Part shown: piece after piece, positions 1-25,367 of the stretch | Layout: each line of letters opens with the position of its first letter | How positions within the stretch are numbered: the first letter of the stretch is position 1 | Origin: Nostoc sp. PCC 7120 = FACHB-418 | GTDB lineage: Bacteria; Cyanobacteriota; Cyanobacteriia; Cyanobacteriales; Nostocaceae | Length of the DNA: 32,000 nt | NCBI RefSeq assembly: GCF_000009705.1 | Contig: NC_003272.1 | Location: forward strand, 6,090,001 to 6,122,000 | Reading direction: 5' to 3' | Notes under the pieces: model-generated | The model's database searches: none | Told to the model about the DNA's origin: nothing | Seen by the model: the letters and a program-made list of their open reading frames with translations, nothing else | Position numbers and translations under genes: made by a program

Positions 1-2399
1 CCCTTGCCTGTGGCAACAAAGCTACTACCAGTATTATTAGAACAACCACTAGCGATTTGTTGAGATGGGTCGGTGAGATTTTCTGATAATTCTACTAACC
101 CAGAATTTGGATCGACACCAATATTATTTATTTGCACAGTGCCATTGACATTGAATTGGGAACTAGCAGTAATGTCATTTGTCAAAACTTCTCTAGGATT
201 GAGAAGATTGCGATACTGCAACCCAATGATTCCCTGAGTTGCAATATGAATATTACCGCCCCTTCCTTGGACGGCATTGGCAATAACATCACTGTTTTCT
301 AAACCGACAATATTTGGGGCTGTAATTTTAATATTACCGCCATTACCAACTGCCTCTGCACTGATGAAACTGCCATTACGCATCAGTAAGACATCGCGCA
401 CTTGCAGATCAATATTACCTCCTTCGCCTGCATTGGCTTCAGAACGAAGTTTGCTAGCTAGATCCAACTTCAAATAATTAGCCTGAATGAGCATATTGCC
501 GGCATTTCCTGTGCCTTTGCCGCTAACTACAATTTCGGTGCGATCGCTAAGACTCAAATCTTTTGTCGTTACATATACGGAACCCGCAACACCAGGGCCT
601 GTAGAGGAGGCATACAACCCACTTGGGCCAGTAGCATCCAGAGAGTAAAGCAGTTGCCCACTTGGTACTTGACTCACACCTGCAATATTGATGGAATTGG
701 CTTGAATAGCAATATTTCCGGCTTTACCATAGGTTTCAGTTGAGGTGGAAATTCGCCCTCCGTCCAGTAAGTTGAGCTTACCAACATTAAAAGTAATGTC
801 GCCACCTTGTCCCTGACCCAGACTAATCAGTTTGTCAGTAGAGAAATCGTAGTTACCATTTGTTGATGCGAAAAATCGTGTGGCAACTCCAGTTGACGAA
901 CTGCCACCCAAAATTACTTCGTCAGCATTAACAATAATGTTACCTGATGTACCTTCACCATAAGTACCAGTCCGAATACCAGGGCCGTTTAAGACCTCTA
1001 GTTTACCGACATTGAGAATTATATCTCCACCCCTACCTGTGGCAAATTCACGGATACTGGTACTCATCCCCGTCAAAAATGCAGGTTCACCTGTTGCAGT
1101 TTCACCTGTCACACTTAAGTTCTTGGCTGTGACAATAATATTGCCACCATCACCAGTTCCTCTAGCAGTAGCGCGTAATTCACCACCGTCCCGAATATTG
1201 ACTTGGGTGGCATCAATCGTGACATTACCACCTCGACCTTGGGAACCATTCATCGTATTAGATGCTAGTGTACTGACGCTAAATCGCTGCTTTGTCGGCG
1301 CATGGATGGCTTCCCCAATCACATTAACAGTTGTAGCTTTAACTGTAATATTGCCGGAATCTCCAATTCCATTGGTACGGGTGTTAATTTGTGCGCCATT
1401 TAAAACACTAAGAAGAGGTGTTTCAATTGTTATATCACCACCCCGTCCCCTAGCTGTTGGTTGAGAGTGAGTAGCAATTGCAGTGTTAGAAAGGGATGAG
1501 CGACCAATAAGTTCAAGGGATTCAGAGGCTTTGACTAGAATACCTTGTCCTGAACTTGTGCCTAAAGTGTGGGAAGTGATAGTTGAAGAACCAGACAAAG
1601 TTATTTTTTGCCCATGGAGAGCGATCGCCCCACCTTGGTTTCCACTGGTATCAACCTTGGCTACATTGCTAAAGTTAATATCTTGGAACTGAGCCACAGT
1701 ATTGAAATCTAAGCTGAATCCAGTAGTGTTTGCAGACAGTCCCACAATATTATTTGCTGCAACGCTCCCTAATTCAACTCTGCCATCGGTAGCAGTAATT
1801 GTACTCTGGTCAAAAGTTAAGTTATTTCCTACTAGTGCAAATGTGTTTCTCGCGGGAATTGCTAATTTTGACCCATAAACGTTAATTGAACTGGGACTGC
1901 TGCCCATTTGCAAACCAATCGGCACGCTCAAGGTGAGTAAAGCTGAATCCAGTGGACTTGTAGCACTAAACTTAAATCCATCAGCAAATTTAATACTTTC
2001 AGCAGTAGTAGCAACAAACGAACCACCAATTTTCAAACTTGCATTTTTGCCAAAAATAATCCCACTGGGATTGAGCAAAAATAAATTAGCACTACCATTG
2101 GCTCTAATTAGACCATCAATGTTGGAGACAGTGCCACCTGTTACTCTACTAAAAATATTCTGTATATCTGCGGCATTGTTGAAAAATGCCGAACCGTTGA
2201 TAGGAAACGAGAATTGGCTGAAGCTATGAAATAAATTATTACCTACCCGGCTACCATTGGTGATGGTGAAATGATTACTACCAGTCACAGTGGTGTTGAG
2301 AGTGGGATCAGGAATAACTTGAGCGTGAACACTACTGTTATCAATAGCAGATATGAAGATTGTGCCAATTAAGGCTAAACCAGTAAAATTTAGTTGCAT
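1..2399 (-). CDS. TpsA / filamentous-haemagglutinin-like two-partner-secretion exoprotein, paralogue 1 (3' end cut by the window edge)
   Basis: Absent from the ORF track because it stays open to the window edge. The reverse complement of 2397-2399 is ATG. My translation starts MQLNFTGLALIGTIFISAIDNSSVHAQVIPDPTLNTTVTGSNHFTITNGSRVGNNLFHSFSQFS...SANLFLLNPSGIIFGKNASLKIGGSFVATTAESIKFADG, which carries the TPS-domain motifs. The frame is still open at nt 3, where it reads ...DPSQQIASGCSNNTGSSFVATGK(G). The conserved C-terminal module is therefore truncated about 75-80 aa before its end. Confidence 0.88.
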   Translation of the reverse strand, partial: MQLNFTGLALIGTIFISAIDNSSVHAQVIPDPTLNTTVTGSNHFTITNGSRVGNNLFHSFSQFSFPINGSAFFNNAADIQNIFSRVTGGTVSNIDGLIRANGSANLFLLNPSGIIFGKNASLKIGGSFVATTAESIKFADGFKFSATSPLDSALLTLSVPIGLQMGSSPSSINVYGSKLAIPARNTFALVGNNLTFDQSTITATDGRVELGSVAANNIVGLSANTTGFSLDFNTVAQFQDINFSNVAKVDTSGNQGGAIALHGQKITLSGSSTITSHTLGTSSGQGILVKASESLELIGRSSLSNTAIATHSQPTARGRGGDITIETPLLSVLNGAQINTRTNGIGDSGNITVKATTVNVIGEAIHAPTKQRFSVSTLASNTMNGSQGRGGNVTIDATQVNIRDGGELRATARGTGDGGNIIVTAKNLSVTGETATGEPAFLTGMSTSIREFATGRGGDIILNVGKLEVLNGPGIRTGTYGEGTSGNIIVNADEVILGGSSSTGVATRFFASTNGNYDFSTDKLISLGQGQGGDITFNVGKLNLLDGGRISTSTETYGKAGNIAIQANSINIAGVSQVPSGQLLYSLDATGPSGLYASSTGPGVAGSVYVTTKDLSLSDRTEIVVSGKGTGNAGNMLIQANYLKLDLASKLRSEANAGEGGNIDLQVRDVLLMRNGSFISAEAVGNGGNIKITAPNIVGLENSDVIANAVQGRGGNIHIATQGIIGLQYRNLLNPREVLTNDITASSQFNVNGTVQINNIGVDPNSGLVELSENLTDPSQQIASGCSNNTGSSFVATGK

Positions 2400-2490
2400 C
2401 AACTTATCTCTAATTTTCTAGCCTGTGTATAGTTTTCCCAAGCAAAATGCTACAAGTTGAGGAAGTTTGTAATGTTATGGTGAGTTCTTT

Positions 2491-4950
2491 TTAGCCTTTA
2501 TGAAAAGCAGTACAAGTTAATGATGACTGTAAATTCACGGAAGATTTATCGGCAATTAATTCTATTTTGCCTTGGGTGTTACGATGCCAAGAAGTTGCTT
2601 GGATAGGAATTTGTGGTTGTATAGGTGTTTGTGCTTGTATTTGTGGTGTGTTTTGGAATGCAGATATATCACGAGTATCAGACCAAGTGCGATCGCTCCT
2701 CACTTCCTGTGTAGGATTTTGCGGCACACCACCCCTACCAGTGGCGACAAAACTACTACTATTAGTATTAGAACAACCAGTAGCTATTTGCTGTGATGGA
2801 TCAGTCACATTCTCCGGTAATTCTACTAAACCGGAATTAGGATCAACACCGACATTATTAATTTGAACTGTACCACTTACCCCAAATTGAGAACTGGCAG
2901 TAATATCACTTTCGGAAGTTTCGCCATCACGAAATTCTAAGCCCAATAAACCTTGAGTGGTAATTTGAATTTTGCCTCCATTTCCTGCAACGGCATTGGC
3001 AATAATATCACTGTTTTCTAGTCCGACAATTAAGGGAGAAATAACAGTAATGTTGCCCCCATTACCATTATTTCCAGCTCTAGCACTGATGAGACTGTTG
3101 TGGCGCATCAGGAGAATATCTCCTACAATCAGTCCTAGAGAACCGCCTTGCCCGGATGCAGCAGCAGTTCTAATTTGACCTTGTTGCTCTAACAAGAGCG
3201 AGTCGGTTTGAATTTGTAAATATCCACCATTGCCACTACCTATATTTTCCGCCGCGATATAGCCCTCATTACTAACTTTAATAGTGGGAGAGATAATAGT
3301 TAAATTTCCGCCATTGCCACTAGGAAATGCTGACAAACCTCTATTTTGTAAATACCTGGGTCGAAATCTTTGCCCTGATGCAGTAATACGACTATGATCC
3401 CGCAACACGGAATTAGAACCATCAACTTCCACAGATTCACTAGCATAAATAGTTAAATCACCCGCATTACCAGTATCAGAAGTGCTAGCAGAAATTACGC
3501 CAGATGCTCTCAGTATTAATTGTCTGGTATTAATAGTTATTACACCGCCATCTCCCCCGAAAAAGGTCGATGTAGCAATAGCGGATGCTCCACCTGATCC
3601 TGGATTTTCACCAAATAGAGAAATTATATCTGCGGTCATGTGAATATTACCGCCACTACCTCCTCCTTCAACCAGTGATGTAATCGTTCCCCCTTCTTTC
3701 ACAATTAAATCTCTAGTGGCGATCGAAATATTTCCACCCTTTCCTCCTCCTGGGAAAGATGGGCTATTAATGCCACTAGCACGAAAATTAATAGGAGAAA
3801 AACCTATAATTTGGATTGATTCTGCGGCAGTGACAGTAATATCGCCGCCTTTCCCCCCATTTGTATAGGTTGTGGATAAAATTCCGCCCCCATCCTGCAC
3901 AATCAACTGCCTAGCTGAAACATCTATATTCGCCCCATATCCACTACCCAGATTTTCAGACAAAATGAAACTTGGATTTTTTTGCGGCAATGCACCACTC
4001 ATTGCTAATAAATCTGCGTTAATTTTGATGCTACCTGGGCGTTGCTGTCCTTGATGTTGAATAAATACACTAGAACTATTTTGAATGTGAATATCTTTTC
4101 CTTGAAGATGAATCGAACCTCCAGGATTACCACTTGTATCGATGAGAGCAGCGCGAGTGAGATAGATATCTGATAAAATTTGACCAGAATGATAGTCAAA
4201 TTTCCAAATAGGAGTATTAGTATTGAGATGAACTGTTCCTGCTGTCATGCTTCCCAGTTCAATATGTCCGCTTTCAGCAATTAACACCCCTGCATCCAAT
4301 TGAATACCATTACCCAAGAGGGCTAATGTTTTCCCTGGAAACAGGCGCAAACCACCAAGTTGTGGATCACGAGTCACTGGGGCTAAAAAATTGGTGGGGT
4401 GGAGAAGATTGTGTCCTTGTCCTTGGACTTGAATGCTACCTGAATTTTGTCCCATCTGTAAGCCAATGGGTACGCTCATCGTGAGCAAAGAAGGTGTGGT
4501 TGTATCAGTTGTACTAAAGATAAAGCCATCGCTAAAGTTAATACTATCGGCTGTCGTTCCTAGAAAAGACCCACCAATATTTAACCTGGCATTAGAGCCA
4601 AAAATAATTCCATTGGGATTGAGTAAAAATAAATTGGCACTACCATTAGCTTGAATTAAACCATCAATATGAGAAATACTACTGCCCGTCACACGACTAA
4701 AAATATTTTGGATATCTAAAGCATTGTCGAAGAAAGCAGAGCCATTGGTGGAAATTGAGAATTGCTGTAAACTGTGAAACAGATTATTCCCAACACGGTT
4801 GCCATTAGTGATAGTGAAATGATTAGCACTTTGAGAAACATCGGTGTTGAGAGTTCCATCGGGAATAACTTGAGCGTTAACACAACTGCTGCCAATAACG
4901 CTTATGAACATTCCGCCGATTACACCAAAGACCGTAAAAGTTACTTTCAT
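2491..4950 (-). CDS. TpsA / filamentous-haemagglutinin-like exoprotein, paralogue 2
   Basis: The track ORF is 2491-4953, but its first codon (4951-4953) is TTG. The adjacent ATG at 4948-4950 gives MKVTF..., which parallels MKITF/MKLTF in sister copies. Signal peptide ends ...SSCVNA|QV. TPS motifs: NLFHSLQQFS, LFLLNPNGIIFG, GGSFLGTTADSINFSDG. The core has GGNI-type Gly/Asn-rich repeats. C-terminal module: ENSDIIANAV, GCS..SSFVATGRGGVPQNP, RSDRTWSD, SWHRNTQGKIEL, LTCTA. Confidence 0.92.
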   Translation of the reverse strand: MKVTFTVFGVIGGMFISVIGSSCVNAQVIPDGTLNTDVSQSANHFTITNGNRVGNNLFHSLQQFSISTNGSAFFDNALDIQNIFSRVTGSSISHIDGLIQANGSANLFLLNPNGIIFGSNARLNIGGSFLGTTADSINFSDGFIFSTTDTTTPSLLTMSVPIGLQMGQNSGSIQVQGQGHNLLHPTNFLAPVTRDPQLGGLRLFPGKTLALLGNGIQLDAGVLIAESGHIELGSMTAGTVHLNTNTPIWKFDYHSGQILSDIYLTRAALIDTSGNPGGSIHLQGKDIHIQNSSSVFIQHQGQQRPGSIKINADLLAMSGALPQKNPSFILSENLGSGYGANIDVSARQLIVQDGGGILSTTYTNGGKGGDITVTAAESIQIIGFSPINFRASGINSPSFPGGGKGGNISIATRDLIVKEGGTITSLVEGGGSGGNIHMTADIISLFGENPGSGGASAIATSTFFGGDGGVITINTRQLILRASGVISASTSDTGNAGDLTIYASESVEVDGSNSVLRDHSRITASGQRFRPRYLQNRGLSAFPSGNGGNLTIISPTIKVSNEGYIAAENIGSGNGGYLQIQTDSLLLEQQGQIRTAAASGQGGSLGLIVGDILLMRHNSLISARAGNNGNGGNITVISPLIVGLENSDIIANAVAGNGGKIQITTQGLLGLEFRDGETSESDITASSQFGVSGTVQINNVGVDPNSGLVELPENVTDPSQQIATGCSNTNSSSFVATGRGGVPQNPTQEVRSDRTWSDTRDISAFQNTPQIQAQTPIQPQIPIQATSWHRNTQGKIELIADKSSVNLQSSLTCTAFHKG
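2541..2700. repeat. 160-bp tract perfectly identical to 7554-7713 (direct repeat, inside the C-terminal module of TpsA paralogue 2)
   Basis: Base-by-base comparison of the two stretches, from aagatttatcggcaatt... to ...ccaagtgcgatcgctcct, shows no mismatch. The offset is a constant 5013 nt. Confidence 0.95.
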
Positions 4951-5024
4951 CAAGCTATTTCCATTTTCTACCCTGTAAGTAGTATTCCCAAAAGATGATT
5001 TTGCTAACCTTGTCGGATGTGTAA

Positions 5025-7412
5025 CTAACTTTTGGAAATTGCTGCACAGGTTAAAGATAGTTGTGCCTGAGTAGAAGATTGCTCTGCAACTAATTCAATT
5101 TTGCCTTGGGTATTACGATGCCAGGAAGTAGCTTGGATGAGAATTTGTGGCTGTGTGGGTGTTTGTGATTGTATTTGTGGTCTGTTCTGGAATGCAGATA
5201 TATCACGAATGTCAGACCAAGTGCGATCGCTCCTCATTTCTTGTGTGGGATTTTGTGGTATTCCACCCCTGCCTGTGGCGACAAAACTACTACCAGTAGT
5301 ATTAGAACAACCACTAGCAATTTGTTGTGATTGATCGGTGATATTGGCCGGCAATTGGATTAAACCGGATTTGGGATCAACACCAATATTATTTACTTCA
5401 ACTGTACCGTTCACACCAAATTGAGAACTAGCAGTAATATCATTTTCGGAAGTGAGTTGAGGACTATATTGTAAGCCGATAATTCCCTGAGTTGTGATTT
5501 GAATATTGCCCCCTTTTCCGTGGACAGCATTGGCAATGATATCACTGTTTTCTAAACCTACAATGATAGGCGAATTAATAGTGATATTACCACCATCACC
5601 AATTGCATTTGATGTAGCGTTAATGGCACTATTATGACGCATCAATAGGGTTTGGGTATTAACATCAATGTTGCCCCCTTCTCCCATTTGTGTGACAGCA
5701 GTAATAGCACCTTGAGTATTCAACACTAGAGAATTGACATTTATTTTTACCATTCCAGCATTACCTCGACCATCATTTCTAACATTAATTAATCCACTAT
5801 TAGCAACCTTCAATTGCTGAGTGGTAATTTGTACATCTCCACTATTTCCAGTCAAAACTCTTGATGTACCGGCTTGTTGAACTGTTGATGAACCTATAAA
5901 ACTGGGAATTAAGAATGATTGTCTGGGCTTGCCAGCAACTTCTATTGATTCTGTGGCATGGAGAGTGACATTTCCGGCTTTCCCACTGGCGTAGGAAGAA
6001 GCTTCCACTCTCGCCCCACTTTGAACTGATAATCTAGCTGTATTCACAATCAAATTGCCAGAATTACCAGCAGCAAGAGTTGAAGAACTTAGGGAACTGG
6101 GTGCAAAACTTGTGGAGACGGTTTCAACTCCGGCTAATTCAATAGATTCTGTGGCCTTGACTGTCACATTTCCTGCCGCACCTGTTCCAATTGTAGAGGT
6201 CGTGACTACAGAACCATCAAGAATTTCTAAGCGATTCGCAACTACGCTCACATCTCCACCCTTTCCAGAAAGAAAAGTCAGTCCAGAAATACCACTACGA
6301 TTAGTTGATATCTTTCCTACTCCTGCTACTTGAATATTGCCAGAGGCATTAACAGTAATATTGCCTCCGCCTACGGAATTACTAATGTTACTGGTCAGAA
6401 TAATACCACCATTATTGGCCATCAGGTCTCGTGTGGATATTTCAATATTGCCTACCATCCCAGTACCGATCGCTCCTGCTCGTACTGCACTAGTAGTAGT
6501 ACCACTGGGATTATCACCAGTGACCGTTAGTAGTTTTGTAGCATGGACTGAAATTTTGCCCGGAGTTTGGACATTTGTCATGTTTTGAATCGATACACGA
6601 GAACCCCCACTCAAAGAGACATTAGCCCCCCATAAATGAATTTCACCATTGCCACCTGTTGACAGTAAAGTTTGGTTAGATAGGTCAATATTCCCAAAAC
6701 TTTGAACATCTTGATAACCTAAACTCCAACCTAAATTATTGGGAGTAAGGCTAACAGTCCCCTCCCCAACTGCACCGAATTCAATTCGTCCTTGAGAAGT
6801 GGAAAGATTACGACTGTCTACAAATATATCTCCTCCTATAAGTGCTAAAGTTTTTCCTGTGGGTACTTGAAGTTGAGTTCCAGATGCTTGAACTTGAATG
6901 GCACTAGGATTCTGCCCAAACTGCAAACCGAGAGGTATATTGATGGTTAACAAAGGAGATATTGTAGGATTGGTGGCACTAAACTCAACTCCATCAAGAA
7001 ACTGAATGCTGTTAGCTGTTGTACCGACAAACGATCCACCAATATTTAACCTGGCATTAGCTCCGAAAATAATCCCATTTGGGTTGATTAAAAATACATT
7101 GGCACTTCCCTTGGCATTGATAGAACCATTAATGGTAGAAACATGACCACCAGTCACTCGACTAAAAATATTTTGGACATCTGAAGCGTTGTCAAACAAG
7201 GCAGAGCCATTGTTAGGAATAGAAAATTGGCTAAAGCTATGAAATAAATTATTACCAACACGAGTACCGTTGGTGATGCTGTAATGATTACTACCGCTCA
7301 CAGAAGTATTGAGGGTGTTGTCGGGTGTTACTTGTGCGTGAACACTAATGTTGCCAATAACTAAGATGTAGATTGCACTAAGTAAGCTTAGGTTAGCAAA
7401 AGTTATTTTCAT
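5025..7412 (-). CDS. TpsA / filamentous-haemagglutinin-like exoprotein, paralogue 3
   Basis: 795-aa ORF with ATG at 7410-7412. Signal peptide ends ...SVHA|QV. TPS motifs: NLFHSFSQFSIP, VFLINPNGIIFGANARLNIGGSF. The core is Gly/Asn/Ser/Thr-rich. C-terminal module: ENSDIIANAVHGKGGNIQITTQGIIGL, GCSNTTGSSFVATGRGGIPQNP, RSDRTWSD, SWHRNTQGKIEL, LTCAA. Confidence 0.93.
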   Translation of the reverse strand: MKITFANLSLLSAIYILVIGNISVHAQVTPDNTLNTSVSGSNHYSITNGTRVGNNLFHSFSQFSIPNNGSALFDNASDVQNIFSRVTGGHVSTINGSINAKGSANVFLINPNGIIFGANARLNIGGSFVGTTANSIQFLDGVEFSATNPTISPLLTINIPLGLQFGQNPSAIQVQASGTQLQVPTGKTLALIGGDIFVDSRNLSTSQGRIEFGAVGEGTVSLTPNNLGWSLGYQDVQSFGNIDLSNQTLLSTGGNGEIHLWGANVSLSGGSRVSIQNMTNVQTPGKISVHATKLLTVTGDNPSGTTTSAVRAGAIGTGMVGNIEISTRDLMANNGGIILTSNISNSVGGGNITVNASGNIQVAGVGKISTNRSGISGLTFLSGKGGDVSVVANRLEILDGSVVTTSTIGTGAAGNVTVKATESIELAGVETVSTSFAPSSLSSSTLAAGNSGNLIVNTARLSVQSGARVEASSYASGKAGNVTLHATESIEVAGKPRQSFLIPSFIGSSTVQQAGTSRVLTGNSGDVQITTQQLKVANSGLINVRNDGRGNAGMVKINVNSLVLNTQGAITAVTQMGEGGNIDVNTQTLLMRHNSAINATSNAIGDGGNITINSPIIVGLENSDIIANAVHGKGGNIQITTQGIIGLQYSPQLTSENDITASSQFGVNGTVEVNNIGVDPKSGLIQLPANITDQSQQIASGCSNTTGSSFVATGRGGIPQNPTQEMRSDRTWSDIRDISAFQNRPQIQSQTPTQPQILIQATSWHRNTQGKIELVAEQSSTQAQLSLTCAAISKS

Positions 7413-7503
7413 CAGCCAAACTTGTAATTATTTACCTTGTATCTAGTATTCCCAAGGTAAATTTTGCTATTGGGGTAGCTGTGTAATTTTACGATGAGTT
7501 TTT

Positions 7504-10389: not shown

Positions 10390-10477
10390 CACTTATGTCT
10401 GTGATACTTAATGATTTATGCTTATGATTCCCTTCAGATAGATACTTCTAACCCTCACTTGTGGAGATTCAGGACAG

Positions 10478-12976: not shown

Positions 12977-12992
12977 CACCCCTTCTCCATTT

Positions 12993-13070: not shown

Positions 13071-15521
13071 TTAACTTTGAGCCGCCGCCGCACAGGTTAA
13101 TGGTGGTTGCACCTGAGTAAGAGATTTATATGCAAGTATCTCGATTTTGCCATGAGCATTACGTCGCCAACCAGTGGCTTGGACAAGAACCAGAGATTCG
13201 GGGATTTGTGCTGTCACTGCGCCAGTATTCCGGTATGCAGAGATGTCGCGCACATCAGACCAAGTGCGATCGCTCCTTACCTCCTGATTGGGATTTTGCG
13301 GTGTTCCACCTCTACCTGTAGTGACAAAACTACTATCACTGTTCTCTGCACATCCACTAGCAATCTTTTGCGATGAATCGGTGAAATTTGTTGGTAATGC
13401 AACTAAACCCGAATTCGGGTCTACACCGATGGTATTGACTTGTACTGTACCATTTACTCCAAACTCTGAACTGGCTGTAATATCATTTCCTGGTGTCAGT
13501 TGAGAACCGTATTCTAAACCAATAATTCCTTGAGTGGTGATGTTAATATTGCCACCTTGACCTCGAACAGCATTAGCTGTGATATCACTGTTTTCTAAGC
13601 CGACAATGGTGGGTGAACTAATGTTGATATTGCCGCCATTACCCGTACTGCCTGCTGTGGTTGTCATTTTACTGCGATCGCGCATTAACAGCAAACTTCC
13701 CACTTTTAAGTCTATATCTCCACCATTCCCAGATTCAGTCTGTGCTTGAATCAAAGCCTGATTTTTTAATTGGATAATATCTGCGGTAATATTCAGGTTG
13801 CCGGCATTACCAGTACCTTCACTCGTTACAGTCACAGTAGCACCATCCATCAGGCTCAGATTTGGTGTTGTAATGCTAAGACTACCAGCATCTGCCGTCA
13901 GCATATCTGGAAAGTCAGATGATTGACGCAACTGTGCATTAAGACGCATTGCAGAAGAATTAATTGCACTGTTGTTATTATTATTACGACCACTAATTGC
14001 GATCGCTTCACTTGCATTGATACTGACATTTCCCCCGTTACCAGCAAACAGTGTAGATGAACCAATTCTTCCCCCATCTAAAATTTGTAATTTGCCAGTA
14101 TTCAATATCAAATCTTTGTTATCTCCGAACGCGAATGTAGCTAAAGTAATCGCACTGTCAAATCCGGAAGGGCTGTTTCCGACCACTGTGGTGTTTTGAT
14201 TGCGAATTGAAATTTTACCACTACTTCCACTGCCAAATGTGACTGAAGAAAGGGAAGCTCCACCGGATATTAGTAAATTATCACCATTAACGAATATATC
14301 ACCAGCACTGCCAGAAGCAAAACTCAAAGTGCTAATACCAGTAACTCTGTTGGGGTTTATTTGCGAAAAACCAGATATTTCAACTGTTTTTGCATCAATT
14401 TCAATATTACCACCAGGAGCAATTCCCGAAGTTAGATTATTTAAACCAGATCCTTCTTGGAGGGTAAATTTTCGCGTAAAAATACCAATATTTCCCCCTG
14501 CTCCAATTCCATAAGTTTCGCTACGAACTCCACTCAACACTTCTCCATCGCTACTTGTGCCAATTAAATCAATTCCTGTTGATGCTTGAAGGTTAATTTC
14601 TCCACCAGGAAGATAGCCATAATTTTGTGCAAGTATCAATGAACCATCTGTTAAACGGATATTTCCGGCTTGTAAACGAACAGAACCTGAATTTACACCA
14701 CTTACATTTATCAGTGACTTTTCTGCTAATTGAATATAACCGAAAATTTGTCCATTCTCATAACCCAACATATAACCTTGTGCATTTGGGATTAAATCAA
14801 CTTGCCCAGTTCCATTGGTACTAACCAATTCTACCCGTCCTTCTGGGGCAGTCAATATAAACCCATCTATTTGTAAATTACCGCCTACCAATGCTAAGGT
14901 TTTTCCTGGTTTCACTTGTAGTTCTGTCGAGTTGGGTGTTGGAACGATAAAAAAACCGCTATTTGTATATCCTCTTCCTTGAGCCTTGATAGCAGCAGAA
15001 TTACTACCCATTTGCAACCCCACTGGTGCGTTCATTGTCAGCAGAGGTTTATCAGCACCTTGCACAGTACTAAATTCCGTCCCATCGGCAAACTTGATAC
15101 TATTGGCAGTTGTGGCTATAAATGAACCACCAATATTTAAGCTGGCATTTTGCCCAAAAATAATTCCTGCGGGGTTGAGTAAGAATAAGTTGGCACTACC
15201 CTTGGCACTAATATCACCATCAATGTTAGAAATATTACCACTAGTCACCCGACTAAAAATATTTTGGATATCAGTGGCATTGTCAAATGAAGCAGAACCA
15301 CCACTAGGCAAGGAAAATTGGCTGAAACTATGAAATAAATTATTCCCAATACGAGTGCCATTGTTAATAATGTAACTATTGCTTCCATTTATGGAAGTAG
15401 TGGACGTAACAGAAGTATTGAGGGTATTATCGGGACTTACTTGTGCGTGAACACTATTGTTGTAAACAACAGATAACCAGATTACACTCAGCACACCAAA
15501 CCCGACAAAAGTTAATTTCAT
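13071..15521 (-). CDS. TpsA / filamentous-haemagglutinin-like exoprotein, paralogue 6
   Basis: 816-aa ORF with ATG at 15519-15521. Signal peptide ends ...SVHA|QV. TPS motifs: NLFHSFSQFSLP, DIQNIFSRVTSG, LFLLNPAGIIFG. The core resembles that of paralogue 5. C-terminal module: GCAENSDSSFVTTGRGGTPQNP, RSDRTWSD, GWRRNAHGKIEI, LTCAA. Confidence 0.93.
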   Translation of the reverse strand: MKLTFVGFGVLSVIWLSVVYNNSVHAQVSPDNTLNTSVTSTTSINGSNSYIINNGTRIGNNLFHSFSQFSLPSGGSASFDNATDIQNIFSRVTSGNISNIDGDISAKGSANLFLLNPAGIIFGQNASLNIGGSFIATTANSIKFADGTEFSTVQGADKPLLTMNAPVGLQMGSNSAAIKAQGRGYTNSGFFIVPTPNSTELQVKPGKTLALVGGNLQIDGFILTAPEGRVELVSTNGTGQVDLIPNAQGYMLGYENGQIFGYIQLAEKSLINVSGVNSGSVRLQAGNIRLTDGSLILAQNYGYLPGGEINLQASTGIDLIGTSSDGEVLSGVRSETYGIGAGGNIGIFTRKFTLQEGSGLNNLTSGIAPGGNIEIDAKTVEISGFSQINPNRVTGISTLSFASGSAGDIFVNGDNLLISGGASLSSVTFGSGSSGKISIRNQNTTVVGNSPSGFDSAITLATFAFGDNKDLILNTGKLQILDGGRIGSSTLFAGNGGNVSINASEAIAISGRNNNNNSAINSSAMRLNAQLRQSSDFPDMLTADAGSLSITTPNLSLMDGATVTVTSEGTGNAGNLNITADIIQLKNQALIQAQTESGNGGDIDLKVGSLLLMRDRSKMTTTAGSTGNGGNINISSPTIVGLENSDITANAVRGQGGNINITTQGIIGLEYGSQLTPGNDITASSEFGVNGTVQVNTIGVDPNSGLVALPTNFTDSSQKIASGCAENSDSSFVTTGRGGTPQNPNQEVRSDRTWSDVRDISAYRNTGAVTAQIPESLVLVQATGWRRNAHGKIEILAYKSLTQVQPPLTCAAAAQS

Positions 15522-15587
15522 GAATCCAGTTTTTGTTTCTTCGTCTGCAATCTATTGTTCCCATTTTGGTAAGTTTTGGAACATTAA

Positions 15588-18341
15588 TTAATTTTCGACT
15601 ATAGCAGTACAGGTCAACTGTGATAAGTGCAATGTGGAAGAGAGTGTAGAGACTAGCTCAACTTTACCTTGAGCATTACGATGCCAAGAAGTAGCTTGGA
15701 CGGGAATTTGTGGCTGTGCGGGTATTTGTGCTTGTATTGAAGGGGTGTTCTGGAATGCAGAGATGTCGCGGATATCAGACCAAGTGCGATCGCTCCTCAT
15801 ATCTTGCGTGGGATTTTGTGGTATTCCGCCCCTGCCTGTGGCGACAAAACTACTACCAGTATTTGCTGAACAACCTGTAGCAATTTGTTGTGACGAGTCA
15901 GTAACATTCCCAGGTAGTTCAATTAAGCCAGAATTAGGGTCAACACCAAAGTTATTAATTTGTACAGTGCCGCTAACTCCAAATTGAGAACTGGCTGTAA
16001 TATCACTTTCGGAGGTAGCTTGGGGACGGAATTTTAGTCCAAATAAACCCTGAGTTTGAATATCGATGTTACCACCAGCCCCTTCAATCGCATTGGCAGT
16101 AATATCACTGTTTTCTAAACCAATAATAATCGGTGCATGAATACTGATATTGCCACCTGTGGCTGTACCTGTAGCATTAGTATTAATTTTACTGCCAGAA
16201 CGCATCAGTAGAACATCAGCAGCTAGACTAATATTACCGCGATCGCCTACAGAAACTTCTGAAAGCAGACTGCCTCCTTGCTCCAGCTTAATCCGGTTGG
16301 CATTCACGATCAAGTTACCTGAATTGCCACCACCTGTATTACTGACAGAAATTTGCCCATGATTAAGAACATTGAGCCGATTCGCCACTAGATTAACTGA
16401 ACCAGCATCAGAGGTTGTAGTAGAAGCTGCCGTAATGGTGCTTGGGAGAATGCGACCATCAGTTAAGGGTTTGGACATACCCTCTACAGTAATATTGTTG
16501 ACTTGCAAATTAACATTACCCGCCGCACCATTACCATCTGCGGAGGAGGTAATTTGTCCACCGTTGAACACACGCAGGTTATCGGCTGTCAGGTTAAGGT
16601 TGCCACCTGAACCCGTAGAACCATTGCCCAGAGAGGCTTTGATACCTGTGATAGTTTGGCTATATCCATCAATCATCGGTTCGCTGACCTGTATATCTTT
16701 AGCTCGAATCTCAATATCTCCTGCTGTACCGTTTGCTCCTGGTATAAAAAGACCCAAGAAATTTACTTGAGAACCTACTACCTCACTAGTAATGCCCCCA
16801 CCATTTGATAATATGAGATTCCCTGTATCGATAGAAATGCGTCCTCCTTGTCCTGTTGTCCCAGATTCCAGTGAAGCAAGAACCGCACTAAATATACCAA
16901 CAGGGTTAGCGCCTTGAATCTCTAAACTCTCGGTAGCTCGAATGGTGACTTCTCCTCCTCTACCATTCCCTCCCAACACACTGCTACTAATACGACCACC
17001 ATTGAATAGGTGAATCCTTTGAGCATCAACAGTAACTTGTCCACTCTGATTATTGCTTCCCGATAGAAGTAAATTACCAATTGAAGTTGCAGAAGCTCCA
17101 AATAAAGTTTCATATCCCAATAGATCCACATCTGTAGCGTGTATGGTGATGTCTCCAGTCCTAGAGTTATTACCAGAAGTGCTGGACACAAGCCAAGCTC
17201 CATTCGTCATCTTTAAACGTCCAGTTTCGATGGTTATATTTCCTGCTTGTCCTGTTGCTGGTGGCCCTGGAAGTACAAATAATCCTAATGAATTGCCTAC
17301 GGAAGTGCTGATCCCAGCGAAAAGAGGTTGGTTAACAAAATCAATGGTTCCTAAAAGATCGATAAATTCTGTAGTGTGGATAGTAATACCTTTTCCTTGT
17401 CCAGCAAATGTTTTTGCACCTATGTTCGAGCCATCCTTTAAGGTTAATCCCCGTCCCCAAATATTGATTGCGCCACCGTTGCTACCATCCGCAGTAACAA
17501 AAGAAGTTTGTTGAAGTGTAATTGTACCCCCGTTGACAGTATTTGGCGAAGAAGTGAGTTGCCATCCGGTTTCCTTGTCTAGGGCAATTTCTCCACTTTG
17601 CAGCGCCCATAATTCGATATGTCCATCAGGAGCAGAAATACTGGCACTATCAATATCAATCTGACTACCCACAAGAGCTAAAGTCTGATTGGGAATCACT
17701 GATAATGTTGGTAATCTAACAAAGAACAAACCGAAACCTAACTCTGGAAGCCCTTGCACTTGAATTGGTGAGCCTTGGACTTGAATTGCTCCGGCATTAC
17801 TTCCCATCTGTAACCCCACGGGTACACTCATAGTCAATAATGGCAGTGCAGCAGAGTTAGTTGCACTAAATTCTGTCCCATCGGAAAACTTAATACTACT
17901 CGCTGTTGTTCCGACGAACGAACCACCGATATTTAGGCTGGCATTTGGCCCGAATACAATCCCGTTAGGATTCATCAAAAATAAACTGACTGGGTTATTG
18001 CTACTGAGCGTCCGAATCAACCCATCTATCTGAGAAACATTACCGCCTGTGACTCGGCTAAATATCGTTGTAATATTTGGCGTATTTGTTAAATCAAAGG
18101 TTGCCTTGCCACCTGTCGGCACAGAGAAATTACTGAAGCTGTGAAATAAATTATTTCCCTTATCAATACCATTGAGAATAGAAAAATCATCACCAATGGC
18201 GTTGACAGTAGTGTTAGTTGTGTTATCAGATGTGACTTGAGCTAGGGTTGGTAGTGAGAGAGTGGAAGTGAACAAGCCAGTGGTCAATGCTGTTAACAAC
18301 AATTGAAACCAGAGATTTGATTCTTTGTAGTTAATTCTCAT
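15588..18341 (-). CDS. TpsA / filamentous-haemagglutinin-like exoprotein, paralogue 7
   Basis: The track ORF is 15588-18347, but it begins with TTG-GTG. The first ATG (18339-18341) gives MRINYKESNLWFQLLL.... Signal peptide ends ...PTLA|QV. TPS motifs: NLFHSFSNFSVP, FDLTNTPNITTIFSRVTGGN, SLFLMNPNGIVFG. The core resembles that of paralogue 8. C-terminal module: GCSANTGSSFVATGRGGIPQNP, RSDRTWSD, SWHRNAQGKVEL, LTCTA. Confidence 0.92.
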   Translation of the reverse strand: MRINYKESNLWFQLLLTALTTGLFTSTLSLPTLAQVTSDNTTNTTVNAIGDDFSILNGIDKGNNLFHSFSNFSVPTGGKATFDLTNTPNITTIFSRVTGGNVSQIDGLIRTLSSNNPVSLFLMNPNGIVFGPNASLNIGGSFVGTTASSIKFSDGTEFSATNSAALPLLTMSVPVGLQMGSNAGAIQVQGSPIQVQGLPELGFGLFFVRLPTLSVIPNQTLALVGSQIDIDSASISAPDGHIELWALQSGEIALDKETGWQLTSSPNTVNGGTITLQQTSFVTADGSNGGAINIWGRGLTLKDGSNIGAKTFAGQGKGITIHTTEFIDLLGTIDFVNQPLFAGISTSVGNSLGLFVLPGPPATGQAGNITIETGRLKMTNGAWLVSSTSGNNSRTGDITIHATDVDLLGYETLFGASATSIGNLLLSGSNNQSGQVTVDAQRIHLFNGGRISSSVLGGNGRGGEVTIRATESLEIQGANPVGIFSAVLASLESGTTGQGGRISIDTGNLILSNGGGITSEVVGSQVNFLGLFIPGANGTAGDIEIRAKDIQVSEPMIDGYSQTITGIKASLGNGSTGSGGNLNLTADNLRVFNGGQITSSADGNGAAGNVNLQVNNITVEGMSKPLTDGRILPSTITAASTTTSDAGSVNLVANRLNVLNHGQISVSNTGGGNSGNLIVNANRIKLEQGGSLLSEVSVGDRGNISLAADVLLMRSGSKINTNATGTATGGNISIHAPIIIGLENSDITANAIEGAGGNIDIQTQGLFGLKFRPQATSESDITASSQFGVSGTVQINNFGVDPNSGLIELPGNVTDSSQQIATGCSANTGSSFVATGRGGIPQNPTQDMRSDRTWSDIRDISAFQNTPSIQAQIPAQPQIPVQATSWHRNAQGKVELVSTLSSTLHLSQLTCTAIVEN

Positions 18342-18403
18342 CACCAATACCTTAGATTGACCTCGTTAAAGTTAAAGTTCCCTTGAAGGTATGAAAAATA
18401 ACA

Positions 18404-21145
18404 TTATTGAATTTTAGGAACAGCAGCACAGGTTAATGATGGTTGTACCTGATTCGGAGAGTTATCTGCAACCAGTTCAATTTTGCCTTGGGCGTTGCGA
18501 TGCCAAGAAGTAGCCCGGATGAGAACTTGTGGTGTTGTCGGTATTTGGGCCGTCACATTACCAGTTTTGTGGAATGCAGAGATGTCGCGCACATCAGACC
18601 AAGTGCGATCGCTCCTCACTTCCTGATTGGGATTTTGTGGTATTCCACCCCTGCCTGTGGCGACAAAACTACTACCATTATCACCAGAACAACCTGTAGA
18701 CACTTTTTGTGACGGATCATTTACATTTGCTGGTAATTCTACTAAACCTGAGTTGGGATCAACGCCGATAGTATTGACTTGAACCGTACCACTTAGCCCG
18801 AATTGGGAACTGGCGGTGATGTCACTATCAGGGGTGAGTCGGTCACGGAACTCAAACCCTAACAAACCTTGAGTTGTAATTAGAATATTACCACCTCGTC
18901 CTAAGACTGCATTGGCAGCAATATCACTGTTTTCTTTAGGGACAGCAATAATCGACTCGGCACTAATATTAATGTTACCACCCGTGGAAGTACCACGAGC
19001 ATTGGTAACAATATTACTGCCGTGTCTGAGGAGAACAAAATCACTGGCGCTAAGTTGAATGTTACCACGACCACCTCCATTCACCTCGGCTCGCAGACTT
19101 GCGCCATTATCTAAAAATATCTGACTAGCATTAATATTTAAGTTACCAGCATCCCCGGAACCAAGATTGCTGACAGTAATTTCTGCCCCATCACGAACAC
19201 TCAAGCGGTCGGCATTAATATTAACTGACCGAGCAGAAAAATTATTGGTGGCAGATGCTGTAATAGTACTAGGCAGTATCCGACCATCCCTTAAAGGTTT
19301 AGAAAGACCCTGTACATCAATATCATTAACCAGTAAATTCACCGTGCCAGCAGATCCTTGACCCAAGCTAGATGAAGTGATCTGGCCACCTTGGAACACG
19401 CGTAAGCGTTCAGCTTGCAGATTGATATTACCACCATCACCAATCGCATTTTTATTCACTGCCACAGTAATACCACTAACTGTATTACTAAAACTATCGA
19501 GCGTTGGCTTACTGACTTCTACATTTTGAGCCTGAATTGCTATATTCCCGGCATTGCCAGTACCTGATAGTTCACTAGCGATAGACCCACCATTTGTGAC
19601 GCGCAAATTTCCTGTGTTAATAGTAATATTGCCAGCTTCACCTTGAGCAAAAGCTTGAATTGAACTAATGATAGCACCAGACAATCCCCCAGCCGTAGTT
19701 CCATTAATTTCCAGAGACTCGCTAGCTTGAATAGAGATATCTCCAGAATTACCGATGGTGATTGAGTCTAAACCAGGAATTGGGAAACCTATTATACTGG
19801 CACTAATACGTCCACCGTTCAGCAGACGAACTTGATTAGCTTCAATGGTGATAGTACCGCTATTATTTCTTTTGCCACTATTAACTAAGGTGGTAATAGC
19901 ACTAGGTCTAAAATTAGCAACTCCAGTAAAAGGATTGGGAAATGGGTTATAGCCACTCACTTCCACGTCCTTAGCAGAAACGGTAATGTTGCCTGTAGTA
20001 GTATCGTTGATGGGAGTAAGGCTGAAGGTTGAGAAATCGAAGGTAAAACCATTGTTGATAGATTGCAACCATGCTCCATTCTGAATCCGTAAACTTTCAG
20101 TCTCGATGGTAATATCTCCCGCCTTTGCCCCACTTCCAGATACAGTAGTGAATAATCCAGGGGTGTCATAATTTTGTGGATCTGATACTCCCAACAAATC
20201 AATAAATTCAGTGGTTTTGACGGTAATCCCTTGTCCTTGTCCAGATGCTCCTGTAGCCGAAGTAATCCCCGAACCTTCCTGAAGTGTTAAACCTCGGCCA
20301 CGGATGTTAATAGCTCCCCCATTTATTCCACTAGTATCGATATATGAGGCTTGTCTGAGGGAAATCAGTCCCCAGTCAGCTGTCGTAGGGCTAGTTAGTT
20401 GTAATCCTGTTTGATTATTTAATCCTACCTCTGCATTCCGCAATGCCCACAATTCCACTCTGCCGTCTGGATTGGCAAGACTAGTTTGATTAAGATCAAT
20501 TTCACTACCAACTAAAGCGACGGTTTGAGCCTTAAAACTTTGCGCGGGGCGAAACAGGAAATTAAGTGCTGGTGTGCCTTGGGTACGAATTGCTCCAGCA
20601 TTGCTGCCTAGTTGTAGTCCCACAGGCACACTCATGGTTAATAAAGGCTGTGTTGTAGAGTCGGTAGCGCTAAATTTACTCCCGTCAGCAAATTGAATAC
20701 TTTCGGCAGTAGTTCCAACAAAAGACCCACTAATGTTGAGGCGGGCATTAGGCCCAAATACAATTCCGCTAGGGTTAAGTAGAAACAGACTAACAGGGTT
20801 TTTGCTATTGATAGTCTGAATTAAGCCATCGATATGGGAAATGCTACCTCCAGTGACTCGACTAAAGATAGTAGAAATATTAGGTGTATTGACTAAATCA
20901 AATGTGGCTGAACCTGGATTGGGAACGGAAAATTGCCCAAAGCTGTGAAATAGATTACTACCTGAGGCACTACCATTAGTGATTGTGAAATGATTGCCAT
21001 TTTTAGTGATATCAGTATTGAGACTGCCGTCTGAAGTGACCTGAGCAGAGGCACAACTATTCCATAGAATGATTCCTAATGGCAACAGCAGCGAACTTGT
21101 AATGATTCGATTTGCCAAACCCCACCCAAAAAAAGGCTGTCTCAT
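18404..21145 (-). CDS. TpsA / filamentous-haemagglutinin-like exoprotein, paralogue 8 (first cargo gene after tpsB)
   Basis: 913-aa ORF with ATG at 21143-21145. Signal peptide ends ...CASA|QV. TPS motifs: NLFHSFGQFSVP, FDLVNTPNISTIFSRVTGGS, SLFLLNPSGIVFG. C-terminal module: GCSGDNGSSFVATGRGGIPQNP, RSDRTWSD, SWHRNAQGKIEL, LTCAA. Confidence 0.93.
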   Translation of the reverse strand: MRQPFFGWGLANRIITSSLLLPLGIILWNSCASAQVTSDGSLNTDITKNGNHFTITNGSASGSNLFHSFGQFSVPNPGSATFDLVNTPNISTIFSRVTGGSISHIDGLIQTINSKNPVSLFLLNPSGIVFGPNARLNISGSFVGTTAESIQFADGSKFSATDSTTQPLLTMSVPVGLQLGSNAGAIRTQGTPALNFLFRPAQSFKAQTVALVGSEIDLNQTSLANPDGRVELWALRNAEVGLNNQTGLQLTSPTTADWGLISLRQASYIDTSGINGGAINIRGRGLTLQEGSGITSATGASGQGQGITVKTTEFIDLLGVSDPQNYDTPGLFTTVSGSGAKAGDITIETESLRIQNGAWLQSINNGFTFDFSTFSLTPINDTTTGNITVSAKDVEVSGYNPFPNPFTGVANFRPSAITTLVNSGKRNNSGTITIEANQVRLLNGGRISASIIGFPIPGLDSITIGNSGDISIQASESLEINGTTAGGLSGAIISSIQAFAQGEAGNITINTGNLRVTNGGSIASELSGTGNAGNIAIQAQNVEVSKPTLDSFSNTVSGITVAVNKNAIGDGGNINLQAERLRVFQGGQITSSSLGQGSAGTVNLLVNDIDVQGLSKPLRDGRILPSTITASATNNFSARSVNINADRLSVRDGAEITVSNLGSGDAGNLNINASQIFLDNGASLRAEVNGGGRGNIQLSASDFVLLRHGSNIVTNARGTSTGGNINISAESIIAVPKENSDIAANAVLGRGGNILITTQGLLGFEFRDRLTPDSDITASSQFGLSGTVQVNTIGVDPNSGLVELPANVNDPSQKVSTGCSGDNGSSFVATGRGGIPQNPNQEVRSDRTWSDVRDISAFHKTGNVTAQIPTTPQVLIRATSWHRNAQGKIELVADNSPNQVQPSLTCAAVPKIQ

Positions 21146-25355: not shown

Positions 25356-25367
25356 AGTTGAAATTTG

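Follow-up and report, generated by a model that had tools for sequence, protein, structure and literature searches.

Organization of the locus

The window, i.e. the whole 32,000-nt stretch that was analysed (positions 6,090,001 to 6,122,000 of contig NC_003272.1 of Nostoc sp. PCC 7120), contains one tpsB gene followed by seven complete tpsA genes and another one, P1, that is cut at the window start (Table 1). Three more tpsA genes (P0, Pm1 and Pm2) lie past P1 beyond this start, and the full array of the Anabaena/Nostoc sp. PCC 7120 lineage is composed of one tpsB and then 11 complete, co-oriented tpsA genes. A start codon, a signal peptide, a TPS domain and a stop codon were found in all 11 copies, as was an NPNG-type motif, NP(N/S/A/T)G. 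The Pfam TPS domain PF05860 was detected once per gene in the eight minus-strand frames of the window (8/8, E 1e-62 to 1e-74) and the tpsA products also matched TIGR01901 (E 1e-22 to 1e-26). Together with the adjacent Omp85-family TpsB, which carries POTRA domains and a ShlB/FhaC-type barrel, the TPS domains characterize the locus, as judged from sequence, as a type Vb (two-partner secretion) system.

Spacers measure 56-176 nt in the window and 52-112 nt among the three further genes, tpsA-to-tpsA spacers being 52-112 nt across the 11-gene array, and no reading frame was found inside them. At the DNA level, conserved junction blocks of about 1.2 kb, each made of the tail of one gene, the spacer and the head of the next gene, alternate with highly divergent cores of 1.5-1.9 kb. 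A promoter and terminator scan of the array gave counts at the level of shuffled sequence, and an Rfam scan of the window gave no match. A tie to the upstream genes for GT2, VTT/DedA and 654-aa membrane proteins, suggestive of periplasmic glycosylation, was considered and dropped, as the flanks are syntenic in the sister species only and not at the other 54 loci.

Table 1. Features of the tpsB-tpsA array in the window
Feature	Position	Strand	Description
tpsB	21322..23088	-	sole Omp85-family exporter, at the array head; Pfam ShlB 7.6e-33, POTRA_2 3.2e-24, Omp85 1.5e-20
P8 tpsA	18404..21145	-	913 aa; hybrid A-then-B head 20606-21145, core family 7/8 18839-20605, conserved C-terminal part 18404-18838
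P7 tpsA	15588..18347	-	919 aa; type B head 17802-18347, core family 7/8 16020-17801
P6 tpsA	13071..15521	-	816 aa; type A head 15006-15521, core family 5/6 13500-15005, mosaic tail
P5 tpsA	10478..12979	-	833 aa; type B head 12464-12979, core family 5/6 10928-12463
P4 tpsA	7504..10392	-	962 aa; type B head, long singleton core
P4 tail tract	7553..7713	-	161 nt, identical to P2 tail; HIP1 7702-7709
P3 tpsA	5025..7412	-	795 aa; type A head, singleton core; product modelled with AF2
P2 tpsA	2491..4953	-	820 aa; type A head (closest Pm1, 78-83%), singleton core, tail converted with P4
P2 tail tract	2540..2700	-	161 nt, identical to P4 tail; HIP1 octamer 2689-2696, 5 nt inside the 5' edge of the tract
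P1 tpsA	1..2399, cut at window start	-	885 aa in full; type A head, singleton core; entire gene L060:12552-15209

Protein anatomy and predicted fold

TpsA proteins share a common layout with a Sec signal peptide, a TPS secretion domain (the head), a long beta-helical shaft (the core), a conserved helix end and a conserved tail of about 85 residues that is predicted to be disordered. In the AF2 model of P3 (mean pLDDT 76.6), an all-beta helix extends from about residue 25 to 675 with pLDDT mostly >85; residues 677-759 have pLDDT <50 and a hairpin is formed at 761-776. The best PDB matches retrieved by Foldseek with this model were HxuA, EtpA and HMW1 (probability 0.98-1.00). As modelled, the array products are predicted to be right-handed beta-helical passengers of a type Vb system.

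The C-terminus is the most conserved region of TpsA, and the last 275 residues gave no match against Pfam, NCBIfam or PDB sequences. The mature protein contains only two cysteines, which flank the conserved tail about 87 residues apart and are invariant across 92 homologues together with the RTWSD.RD and TGRGG..P motifs. This tail, enclosed by the two cysteines, may anchor fibres on the cell surface. The head would be the domain recognized by TpsB, and the conservation of both head and tail likely results from all copies sharing one exporter, the exposed shaft appearing as the part under diversifying pressure.

Modular mosaicism of the paralogues

The initial annotation had sorted heads, cores and tails into groupings that disagree with each other, and all the motifs that it quoted were found as written in the reading frames of the window. 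Its two TPS types were recovered in NJ trees, with paralogues 1, 2, 3 and 6 forming type A and 4, 5 and 7 forming type B (bootstrap 93-99 and 91-94); nucleotide identity of this domain is 68-72% within A and 73-76% within B versus 62-66% between the two types. Both types are coherent across the wider family, where their two linked indel markers are never discordant. The P8 head is indeed hybrid, being A-like to about codon column 88 and B-like beyond (max-chi2 p = 0.004, 20 diagnostic sites).

Cores and tails are grouped otherwise. P5/P6 and P7/P8 share cores with 55% and 58% identity, compared to 38-47% in other pairs, and with NJ bootstrap values of 99-100 and 100, respectively. The tails of P2 and P4 are 94.6% identical versus 66-82% in other pairs (bootstrap 96-100) and comprise 161 nt that are identical in DNA. 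The common tail proposed for P5 and P6 was retained in part: the ATGWRRNA.GKIE patch is present, but it is a short patch inside a P6 tail that is itself mosaic, and the whole tail places P6 with P8 (77-84%) and not with P5. The P6 head is closest to Pm2 (84-87%) and then to P0 (81-87%), the P4 C-terminal part is closest to Pm1 (77-83%) and then to P2 (92-99%), and the P7 tail contains an 84-89% patch for which P3 is closest.

Separate NJ trees for head, core and tail conflict with high bootstrap and, since the {5,6} grouping of cores cannot be reconciled with the TPS split, the three groupings genuinely disagree. In Mantel tests, tail and core similarities were uncorrelated (r = -0.03) and head and core similarities weakly correlated (r = 0.35). 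In the wider P5/P6 core family, A heads were found in 11 members and B heads in 16, and head type changes at least 5 times along the core tree.

Traces of recombination and gene conversion

Recombination or gene conversion among array members, the central proposal of the initial annotation, is borne out by incongruent module trees, the PHI test (p <= 0.003), GENECONV-like and 3SEQ-like tests and the sister-species comparison described below. The GENECONV-like test, permuted within modules, gave global p values of <0.0005 for P2/P4, 0.004 for Pm1/Pm2 and 0.04 for P8/P3. In the 3SEQ-like scan, 140 of 990 triplet tests reached the permutation floor (z up to about 20) with consistent breakpoints near columns 150-185 and 900-1015, which correspond to the end of the TPS domain and the conserved C-terminal part; because core alignments of non-sister paralogues are poor (25-30% aa), these positions are accurate to about 20-30 codons only. 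For instance, P5 is P4-like over columns 39-184 and P6-like over 184-918 (z = 16.6-20.6), P7 is P4-like over columns 40-173 and P8-like over 173-1030 (z = 14-16), and P6 is of A type over columns 22-155 and P5-like further on (z = 10-14).

The P2/P4 tract spans 90 consecutive concordant polymorphic sites, with a tail pS of 0.08 versus 0.40-0.63 in other pairs, and is the only recent tract of the array. Outside the 161 nt, synonymous sites of P2 and P4 are saturated, as they are in nearly all paralogue pairs, which indicates that most exchanges are ancient. At pairs of identical residues, synonymous-codon identity rises from 0.30-0.40 in cores to 0.50-0.58 in the TPS domain and 0.61-0.77 in tails, a gradient that is not predicted by protein-level constraint alone. 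pN amounts to 0.11-0.28 in heads and tails versus 0.32-0.56 in cores. The HIP1 octamer occupies the same tail position in 11 of 11 copies and adjoins the boundary of the P2/P4 tract, and nucleotide-level selection could account for part of the synonymous similarity of tails.

The cyanobacterial family is very large, with at least 7,850 matches below E 1e-30, and its function is almost unstudied. Among the other 55 loci, no recent tract (>=95% identity, 90 nt) was found between tpsA paralogues, the other matches at this threshold being two, in L032 and L050. A looser scan found within-array tail tracts of 84-92% identity and 380-1,150 nt in other genera, lengths that are biased as BLAST extends over whole junction blocks.

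Comparison with Nostoc parmelioides

At the level of sequence, comparison with orthologues from the sister species N. parmelioides is the decisive test of module exchange. The tpsB orthologues are 94% identical in amino acids with a dS of 0.23, and the array flanks, with 93% nucleotide identity, are syntenic in this species only, tpsA arrays of other genera being found in differing genomic contexts. Gene order within the array is changed in N. parmelioides and one extra gene is present. In the orthologues of P8 and P0, the cores are retained, that of P8 with 90-98% nucleotide identity, but the heads and C-termini are non-orthologous. In the N2/P8 pair, dS is 0.31 in the core, 0.95 in the head and 0.67 in the C-terminus; in the N3/P0 pair, the corresponding values are 0.25, 1.37 and 0.95. 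Constraint cannot produce ends with 3-5 times more synonymous divergence than the variable core. The replaced heads of P8, P0 or their orthologues could be assigned to no donor, the closest in-array sequences for P0/P8 being 81-87% identical, so that exchange within the array and exchange with another strain are not separable for those events. Orthology in these families is consequently to be called per module, as heads and tails of the "same" gene were non-orthologous in two sister-species pairs.

Stability within the PCC 7120 lineage

The same array, with 0-1 mismatches, was recovered in 20 contigs of the lineage that stem from about 15 samples sequenced independently; these are consensus assemblies and not population data and thus have limited power. 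The initial annotation suggested looking for new chimeras in sister strains or resequenced lineages, and the sole apparent case proved to be an assembly collapse. In GCA_003990585.1, the order P5-P4-P1, with a P4 body joined to a P2 end, was at first taken as a deletion by unequal crossing-over, and its crossover point falls exactly within the 161-nt tract. However, the missing 5,012 bp (P3 and the P2 body) form a contig of their own in this assembly, which identifies the chimera as a collapse; the same 5.0-5.1 kb loop contig was present in four other short-read assemblies. A split of P6 into two genes in L003 was likewise rejected, being due to a run of N in the scaffold. Short-read assemblies of this model cyanobacterium therefore collapse or break at the conversion tract, one public assembly holds a false chimeric gene, and cross-talk between paralogues may be the source of the synonymous "variant hotspots" that have been reported as clusters in genes of this kind.

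Taken together, old exchanges, uniform arrays and the lack of a real chimera indicate that chimeras form about as slowly as species diverge and not within the life of a culture. The view of the array as a cassette system making new chimeric exoproteins stands for recombination among its members; it is not supported as regards cassettes, since none is silent or truncated, or ongoing switching, with a single recent tract and uniform lineage arrays. Re-pairing of modules is real and well supported, and it is a slow evolutionary shuffling rather than a fast switching.

Interpretation and alternative explanations

The reading that we favour, with a probability of about 0.85, is that interlocus conversion and unequal crossing-over within conserved blocks re-pair the heads, cores and tails of this type Vb array. 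Homologous recombination in the junction blocks would bring the three modules into new combinations and change copy number. Short non-reciprocal gene-conversion tracts are the part of this mechanism that is directly documented, and unequal crossing-over is suggested by arrays whose gene order and gene number vary from one species to another. The same recombination would keep the ends alike in DNA (concerted evolution), and shafts would diverge because they offer too little homology for it. Events are rare, with one recent tract in the array and ends replaced since the split from the sister species.

Part of these observations could also be expected from a dedicated and frequently acting system of cassette or antigenic variation, comparable to pilE/pilS, where array members would serve as donors that rewrite an expressed copy within the lineage. 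Such a system would account for the perfect P2/P4 tract, the conserved flanks around variable cores and the HIP1 octamer at a fixed tail position beside the tract boundary. Nevertheless, with 11 complete copies, signal peptide and TPS domain included, none is a silent cassette, and the unchanged lineage arrays, the collapse behind the only apparent chimera, the synonymous saturation of nearly all pairs and the lack of recent tracts between tpsA paralogues at the other 55 loci make it very improbable. Explaining the pattern without any recombination, through unequal constraint or convergence, two head forms co-adapted to the exporter and short motifs shared by chance, agrees with the stronger purifying selection on heads and tails than on cores. 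Yet type A is set apart from type B by two linked indels in addition to substitutions, identity reaches synonymous sites, orthologue ends exceed their cores in synonymous divergence and the GENECONV-like and 3SEQ-like permutation tests are significant, which leaves it hardly credible.

Uptake of foreign DNA could be the main source of the chimeras, with other strains contributing cores or entire junction blocks that recombine in via the conserved ends. The replaced P0/P8 heads without an in-array donor above 81-87%, the differing genomic contexts of arrays in other genera and the finding that environmental cassettes can replace meningococcal tpsA 3' ends (PMC3848433) point in this direction; however, both partners of the recent tract are array members, tails and heads are homogenised within genomes, and P8/P0 cores show ordinary vertical divergence with a dS equal to that of tpsB. 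As the main source, it is considered unlikely. Foreign uptake is compatible with re-pairing within the array, both relying on the same conserved blocks. The TpsB/TpsA architecture and the several tandem tpsA-like genes, as in Neisseria tpsA-tpsC islands, also recall a contact-dependent inhibition or polymorphic-toxin locus that exchanges C-terminal toxin modules. This has next to no likelihood here, as C-termini are the most conserved and not the variable part, VENN and (Q/E)LYN motifs are absent, the last 275 residues match nothing in the databases searched, and the short spacers, both in the window and among the three further genes, leave no room for immunity genes.

Beyond the mechanism, the array might constitute a combinatorial shaft library in which one exporter serves 11 surface fibres, each with a secretion head, an exposed shaft and an anchoring tail between cysteines, and HIP1-bearing junction blocks are maintained for the reassortment, gain and loss of shafts, under pressure from phages or grazers using fibres as receptors or for filament recognition. 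This is a speculative and quite improbable idea for which a testable handle exists: a phage-resistant PCC 7120 mutant with lower adsorption carries a point mutation in the TpsA alr1906 (PMC10811720). When alr1906 was sought in the array, Ala127 was encoded by GCC in no paralogue, given the start codons used here. Ngo et al. (J Bacteriol 2021), cited in the supplement of PMC10811720, dealt with the two TpsB-like proteins that PCC 7120 possesses.

Comparison with known systems

No earlier description of such evolution in a cyanobacterial TpsA array was found in the literature searched, and PCC 7120 exoproteome and biofilm papers do not mention the array genes. The opa genes of Neisseria are a tandem surface-protein family that undergoes interlocus gene conversion and concerted evolution. 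In the same way, both processes are outlined for tandem genes of Plasmodium merozoite surface proteins (PMC10919680). Such families have in common with the PCC 7120 array trees that conflict from segment to segment, short tracts without differences at silent sites, ends that are homogenised as other parts diverge, and shifts in copy number and order between close species. The array differs from them by its three-module unit and its single shared exporter.

Orphan modules of the CdiA-CT/CdiI kind and polymorphic toxin systems have reportedly been described. Like the array, they combine a conserved, TPS-secreted beta-helical scaffold with modules re-paired at conserved sequence. The polarity of the PCC 7120 array is reversed, since its middle varies and its ends are conserved, and it has no toxin, immunity gene or VENN boundary. 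Polymorphic toxin systems are the subject of Zhang et al. 2012 (PMC3482391).

With HMW1/HMW2 of Haemophilus influenzae, the array products share the TpsA beta-helix, the HMW1 secretion domain (2odl) being among the best fold matches, and a C-terminal cysteine pair. In HMW1, this pair is reportedly needed to keep the adhesin on the cell (Buscher et al. 2006). In contrast with HMW1, the cysteines of the array TpsA are about 87 residues apart and not within a 20-residue end, no HMW1C-type glycosyltransferase partner is present and the tails have no sequence similarity.

In N. meningitidis, tpsA/tpsC recombination occurs at a low measured frequency and was not regarded as antigenic variation by the authors (Arenas et al. 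2013, PMC3848433). That system resembles the array by two-partner secretion, tandem tpsA-related sequences and exchange of segments by recombination, but its donors are truncated silent 3' cassettes among immunity genes, and swapping is restricted to the toxic C-terminal domain (PMC3848433). The PCC 7120 array is instead made of 11 complete copies with a conserved C-terminus and no intervening reading frames, in which both ends are exchanged relative to the core. It offers a clean case from nature in which sharing one export partner can keep both ends of a secreted protein family fixed, while recombination there joins them anew to freely diverging middles.

Organization of the locus

The TPS domains of eight large reading frames (the tpsA paralogues P8, next to tpsB, to P1, at the window start) and the ShlB, POTRA_2 and Omp85 domains of a ninth identify a two-partner secretion locus, in which tpsB is followed by tandem tpsA genes. 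Spacers between the locus genes in the window measure 56-176 nt. The identical TpsB protein occurs on contigs that agree with the window at 100%. By walking along matching contigs past the window start, the full length of P1 was read as 885 aa. Beyond it lie three more tpsA genes, P0 (815 aa), Pm1 (825 aa) and Pm2 (828 aa), so that the array holds 11 tpsA genes. A convergent aminotransferase gene closes the array, and past it lie genes encoding a GT2, a class A penicillin-binding protein and an alpha-2-macroglobulin-like protein of 1,906 aa. The three genes just upstream of the locus are syntenic with tpsB in the sister species only; as a group they look like a set for lipid-carrier-linked glycosylation. 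Opposite the tpsA genes run reading frames of 150-179 aa, which have probably arisen by chance in coding sequence that is repetitive and rich in glycine and asparagine.

Coordinates of the features discussed (window positions unless a contig is named)
Feature	Position	Strand	Remark
P1-P8, tpsA	1-21145	-	one Pfam TPS secretion domain each, E 1e-62 to 1e-74
tpsB	21322-23088	-	ninth reading frame
Rest of P1 and three further tpsA	L060:12552-20267, L062:12542-15028		contigs reaching beyond window start
GT2 glycosyltransferase, VTT/DedA-family protein, 654-aa polytopic membrane protein	24366-28122	-	last without Pfam match
Antisense reading frames	8246-8785, 9584-10060, 17053-17514, 1012-1464	+	
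Conserved, predicted-disordered tail	last ~95 codons per tpsA, e.g. P3 5025-5309		
Identical P2/P4 tail tract, 161 nt	2540-2700 = 7553-7713	-	
HIP1 octamer	2689-2696 (P2), 7702-7709 (P4)		equivalent tail position in 11/11 paralogues
False P4-P1 join, P3 and P2 dropped	L061 (RSCN01000014.1)		
5,012-bp contig	L069 (RSCN01000087.1)		with L061, corresponds to window 2540-7713
N. parmelioides array start	L005:11800-21763		

Architecture of the TpsA proteins

An AlphaFold2 model of P3, built using 92 homologues, predicts an unbroken beta-helix over residues ~25-675 (pLDDT mostly >85), beyond which residues 677-759 form a stretch of low confidence that leads to a small hairpin (761-776). Its best structural matches are the TpsA passengers HxuA, EtpA and HMW1. 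The low-confidence stretch is among the best conserved regions (motifs SSF.ATGRGG.P.NP and RSDRTWSD.RD). The mature protein has just two cysteines, ~87 residues apart; they flank this tail and are invariant in the 92 homologues. Searches of the last 275 residues against Pfam, NCBIfam and PDB sequences found nothing. In HMW1, a cysteine pair retains the fibre at the cell surface. The cysteine-bracketed tail may be a surface-retention or exporter-binding element, and it can be hypothesized by analogy that it holds the fibre at the surface as the HMW1 pair does. A contact-dependent inhibition locus was also considered and ruled out, because the TpsA proteins lack a VENN motif and the spacers are too small for immunity genes.

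Conflicting relationships among modules

Each gene can be divided into a head (N-terminal TPS domain, type A or B), a core (variable beta-helical shaft) and a conserved C-terminal tail. The initial annotation had proposed that these modules group the paralogues in three incompatible ways, and the motifs on which it relied are all present. In the TPS domain, nucleotide identity is 68-72% inside {P1,P2,P3,P6}, 73-76% inside {P4,P5,P7} and 62-66% between the two groups. In the core, P5/P6 (55%) and P7/P8 (58%) stand apart from the remaining pairs (38-47%), as does P2/P4 in the tail (94.6% versus 66-82%). Separate neighbour-joining trees, computed on protein and codon alignments, support {1,2,3,6} (93-99% bootstrap) and {4,5,7} (91-94%) for the TPS domain, {5,6} (99-100%) and {7,8} (100%) for the core, and {2,4} (96-100%) and {6,8} (77-84%) for the tail. 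Since the core split {5,6} cannot share one tree with the TPS split {1,2,3,6}, the conflict is real. Tail and core similarity are uncorrelated (Mantel r = -0.03), while head and core similarity are weakly correlated (r = 0.35, p = 0.02).

The hybrid head proposed for P8 was also recovered, its diagnostic sites being A-like up to about alignment column 88 and B-like beyond (max-chi2 p = 0.004, 20 sites). The suggested linker shared by P5 and P6 exists, but only as a short patch, and over the whole tail P6 joins P8; the tail is therefore itself a patchwork.

Recombination tests and breakpoints

The PHI test rejected a single history with eight sequences (p = 0.003) and with seven (p = 0.001). 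In a GENECONV-like test on runs of concordant polymorphic sites, columns were permuted within each module only, which kept the conserved ends from inflating the outcome. The test singled out a P2/P4 run of 90 sites (global p < 0.0005), together with Pm1/Pm2 (p = 0.004) and P8/P3 (p = 0.04). All 990 ordered triplets were put through a 3SEQ-like scan, and 140 reached the permutation floor (p <= 0.001, z up to 20.6). Breakpoints recur in two places: columns 150-185, where the conserved part of the TPS domain stops near GLQMG, and columns 900-1015, inside the conserved C-terminal part. P5 is P4-like over columns 39-184 and P6-like over 184-918; P7 is P4-like over 40-173 and P8-like beyond; Pm2 is P6-like over 5-104 and Pm1-like beyond; and P2 is P4-like over 1011-1091. 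Mapped in sliding windows, the ends of the 11 genes resolve into a patchwork whose pieces, 75-300 nt long, are 80-89% identical to differing partners.

Comparison with the sister species and the wider family

The closest relative available is N. parmelioides FACHB-3921, whose contig covers the array start and stops some 800 bp beyond the stretch analysed. Its flanks and tpsB share ~93% DNA identity with PCC 7120 (flanking proteins 96-99%), and its array begins tpsB-N1-N2-N3-N4. N1, lying between tpsB and N2, is an additional tpsA without counterpart in PCC 7120; N2 is orthologous to P8, N3 to P0, and N4 is related to P6. The P0 orthologue is thus third in N. parmelioides and ninth in PCC 7120, eight genes further down. 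Between the species, dS is 0.23 for tpsB and similarly low in the cores (N2/P8 0.31, N3/P0 0.25), whereas it reaches 0.95 and 1.37 in the respective heads and 0.67 and 0.95 in the C-termini, and the nearest relatives of these ends are other paralogues. Judged from these values, the most conserved parts of the N2/P8 and N3/P0 proteins are the least orthologous. High dS at the ends around low dS cores is explained solely by recombinational replacement after the species split. Together with the tests above, this bears out the recombination or gene conversion postulated among array members. The differences in gene order and number also point to unequal crossing-over or deletion.

A wider sample comprised 95 TpsA proteins encoded at 55 tpsB loci of Nostocales. 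In it, types A and B each make up a coherent lineage, and two indel markers are never discordant. The P5/P6 core family carries a type A head in 11 members and a type B head in 16, with at least 5 switches on the core tree; the closest core to that of P6 (type A) belongs to a type B protein of Nodularia harveyana. In arrays of several other genera, paralogue tails share tracts of 380-1,150 nt at 84-92% identity. Across the sample, one to at least four copies lie within 10 kb of tpsB.

Age of the exchanges and mode of evolution

For nearly all pairs, synonymous differences have reached saturation in the core as well as in the TPS domain and the conserved C-terminal part (pS 0.53-0.87), so the paralogues must be old, as must most of the shuffling. 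Only the P2/P4 tail departs from this (pS 0.08); it contains the perfectly identical tract, around which P2/P4 identity is 55-75% upstream and ~80% downstream through the stop codon and spacer. The tract starts 5 nt upstream of the cyanobacterial HIP1 octamer GCGATCGC, which encodes S-D-R of RSDRTWSD in all 11 paralogues, ~200 nt ahead of the stop. Where paired residues are the same, the codons also agree in 30-40% of cases in the core, and this share rises to 50-58% in the TPS domain and to 61-77% in the tail. Such high same-codon use at the ends is not predicted by protein-level constraint but is predicted by their homogenisation at the DNA level.

Complete secreted-fibre genes make up this tandem family, which evolves through interlocus gene conversion and unequal crossing-over. 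Junction blocks of ~1.2 kb (tail, spacer and next head), 70-76% identical to one another, alternate with divergent cores and would be the sole sites where recombination can start. Short conversion tracts have demonstrably patched heads and tails from other copies, and crossovers between the blocks of different copies would, as the species comparison suggests, delete, duplicate and re-order genes. The ends presumably stay conserved because all 11 proteins share one exporter, which would thereby set the module structure.

The initial annotation had gone further and described the array as behaving like a cassette system that produces new chimeric exoproteins. Recombination among its members holds, but this label overstates the case: no evidence of a fast or dedicated switching mechanism was found in the array, the lineage samples or the other loci. 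All 11 tpsA copies are complete genes, the array is identical in 20 contigs from ~15 lineage samples, and the other 55 loci contain no recent tracts between tpsA paralogues at 95% identity and 90 nt. No true new chimera appeared in the lineage samples. The sole apparent case, a P4/P2 chimera in GCA_003990585.1, arose when the assembly collapsed across the 161-nt tract: the same assembly carries the missing 5,012 bp as a contig of its own. Other short-read assemblies yield the same loop contig, and several metagenome and short-read assemblies break at this repeat.

Relation to known systems

Full-text literature searches brought up no paper describing TpsA arrays in cyanobacteria or their mosaicism. 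Another TpsA of PCC 7120, alr1906, carries an A127V point mutation in a mutant reported to resist phage and to show lower adsorption (PMC10811720). Resequencing of Nostoc was reported to show repeated "variant hotspots", largely synonymous, in genes of the hemagglutinin-like and psbA kinds (PMC9307615); these match the expected look of paralogue cross-talk and may stem from conversion between paralogues or from their cross-mapping. The nearest published parallel is the meningococcal tpsA/tpsC system which, like the PCC 7120 array, recombines rarely, and which its authors judged not to represent antigenic variation (PMC3848433).
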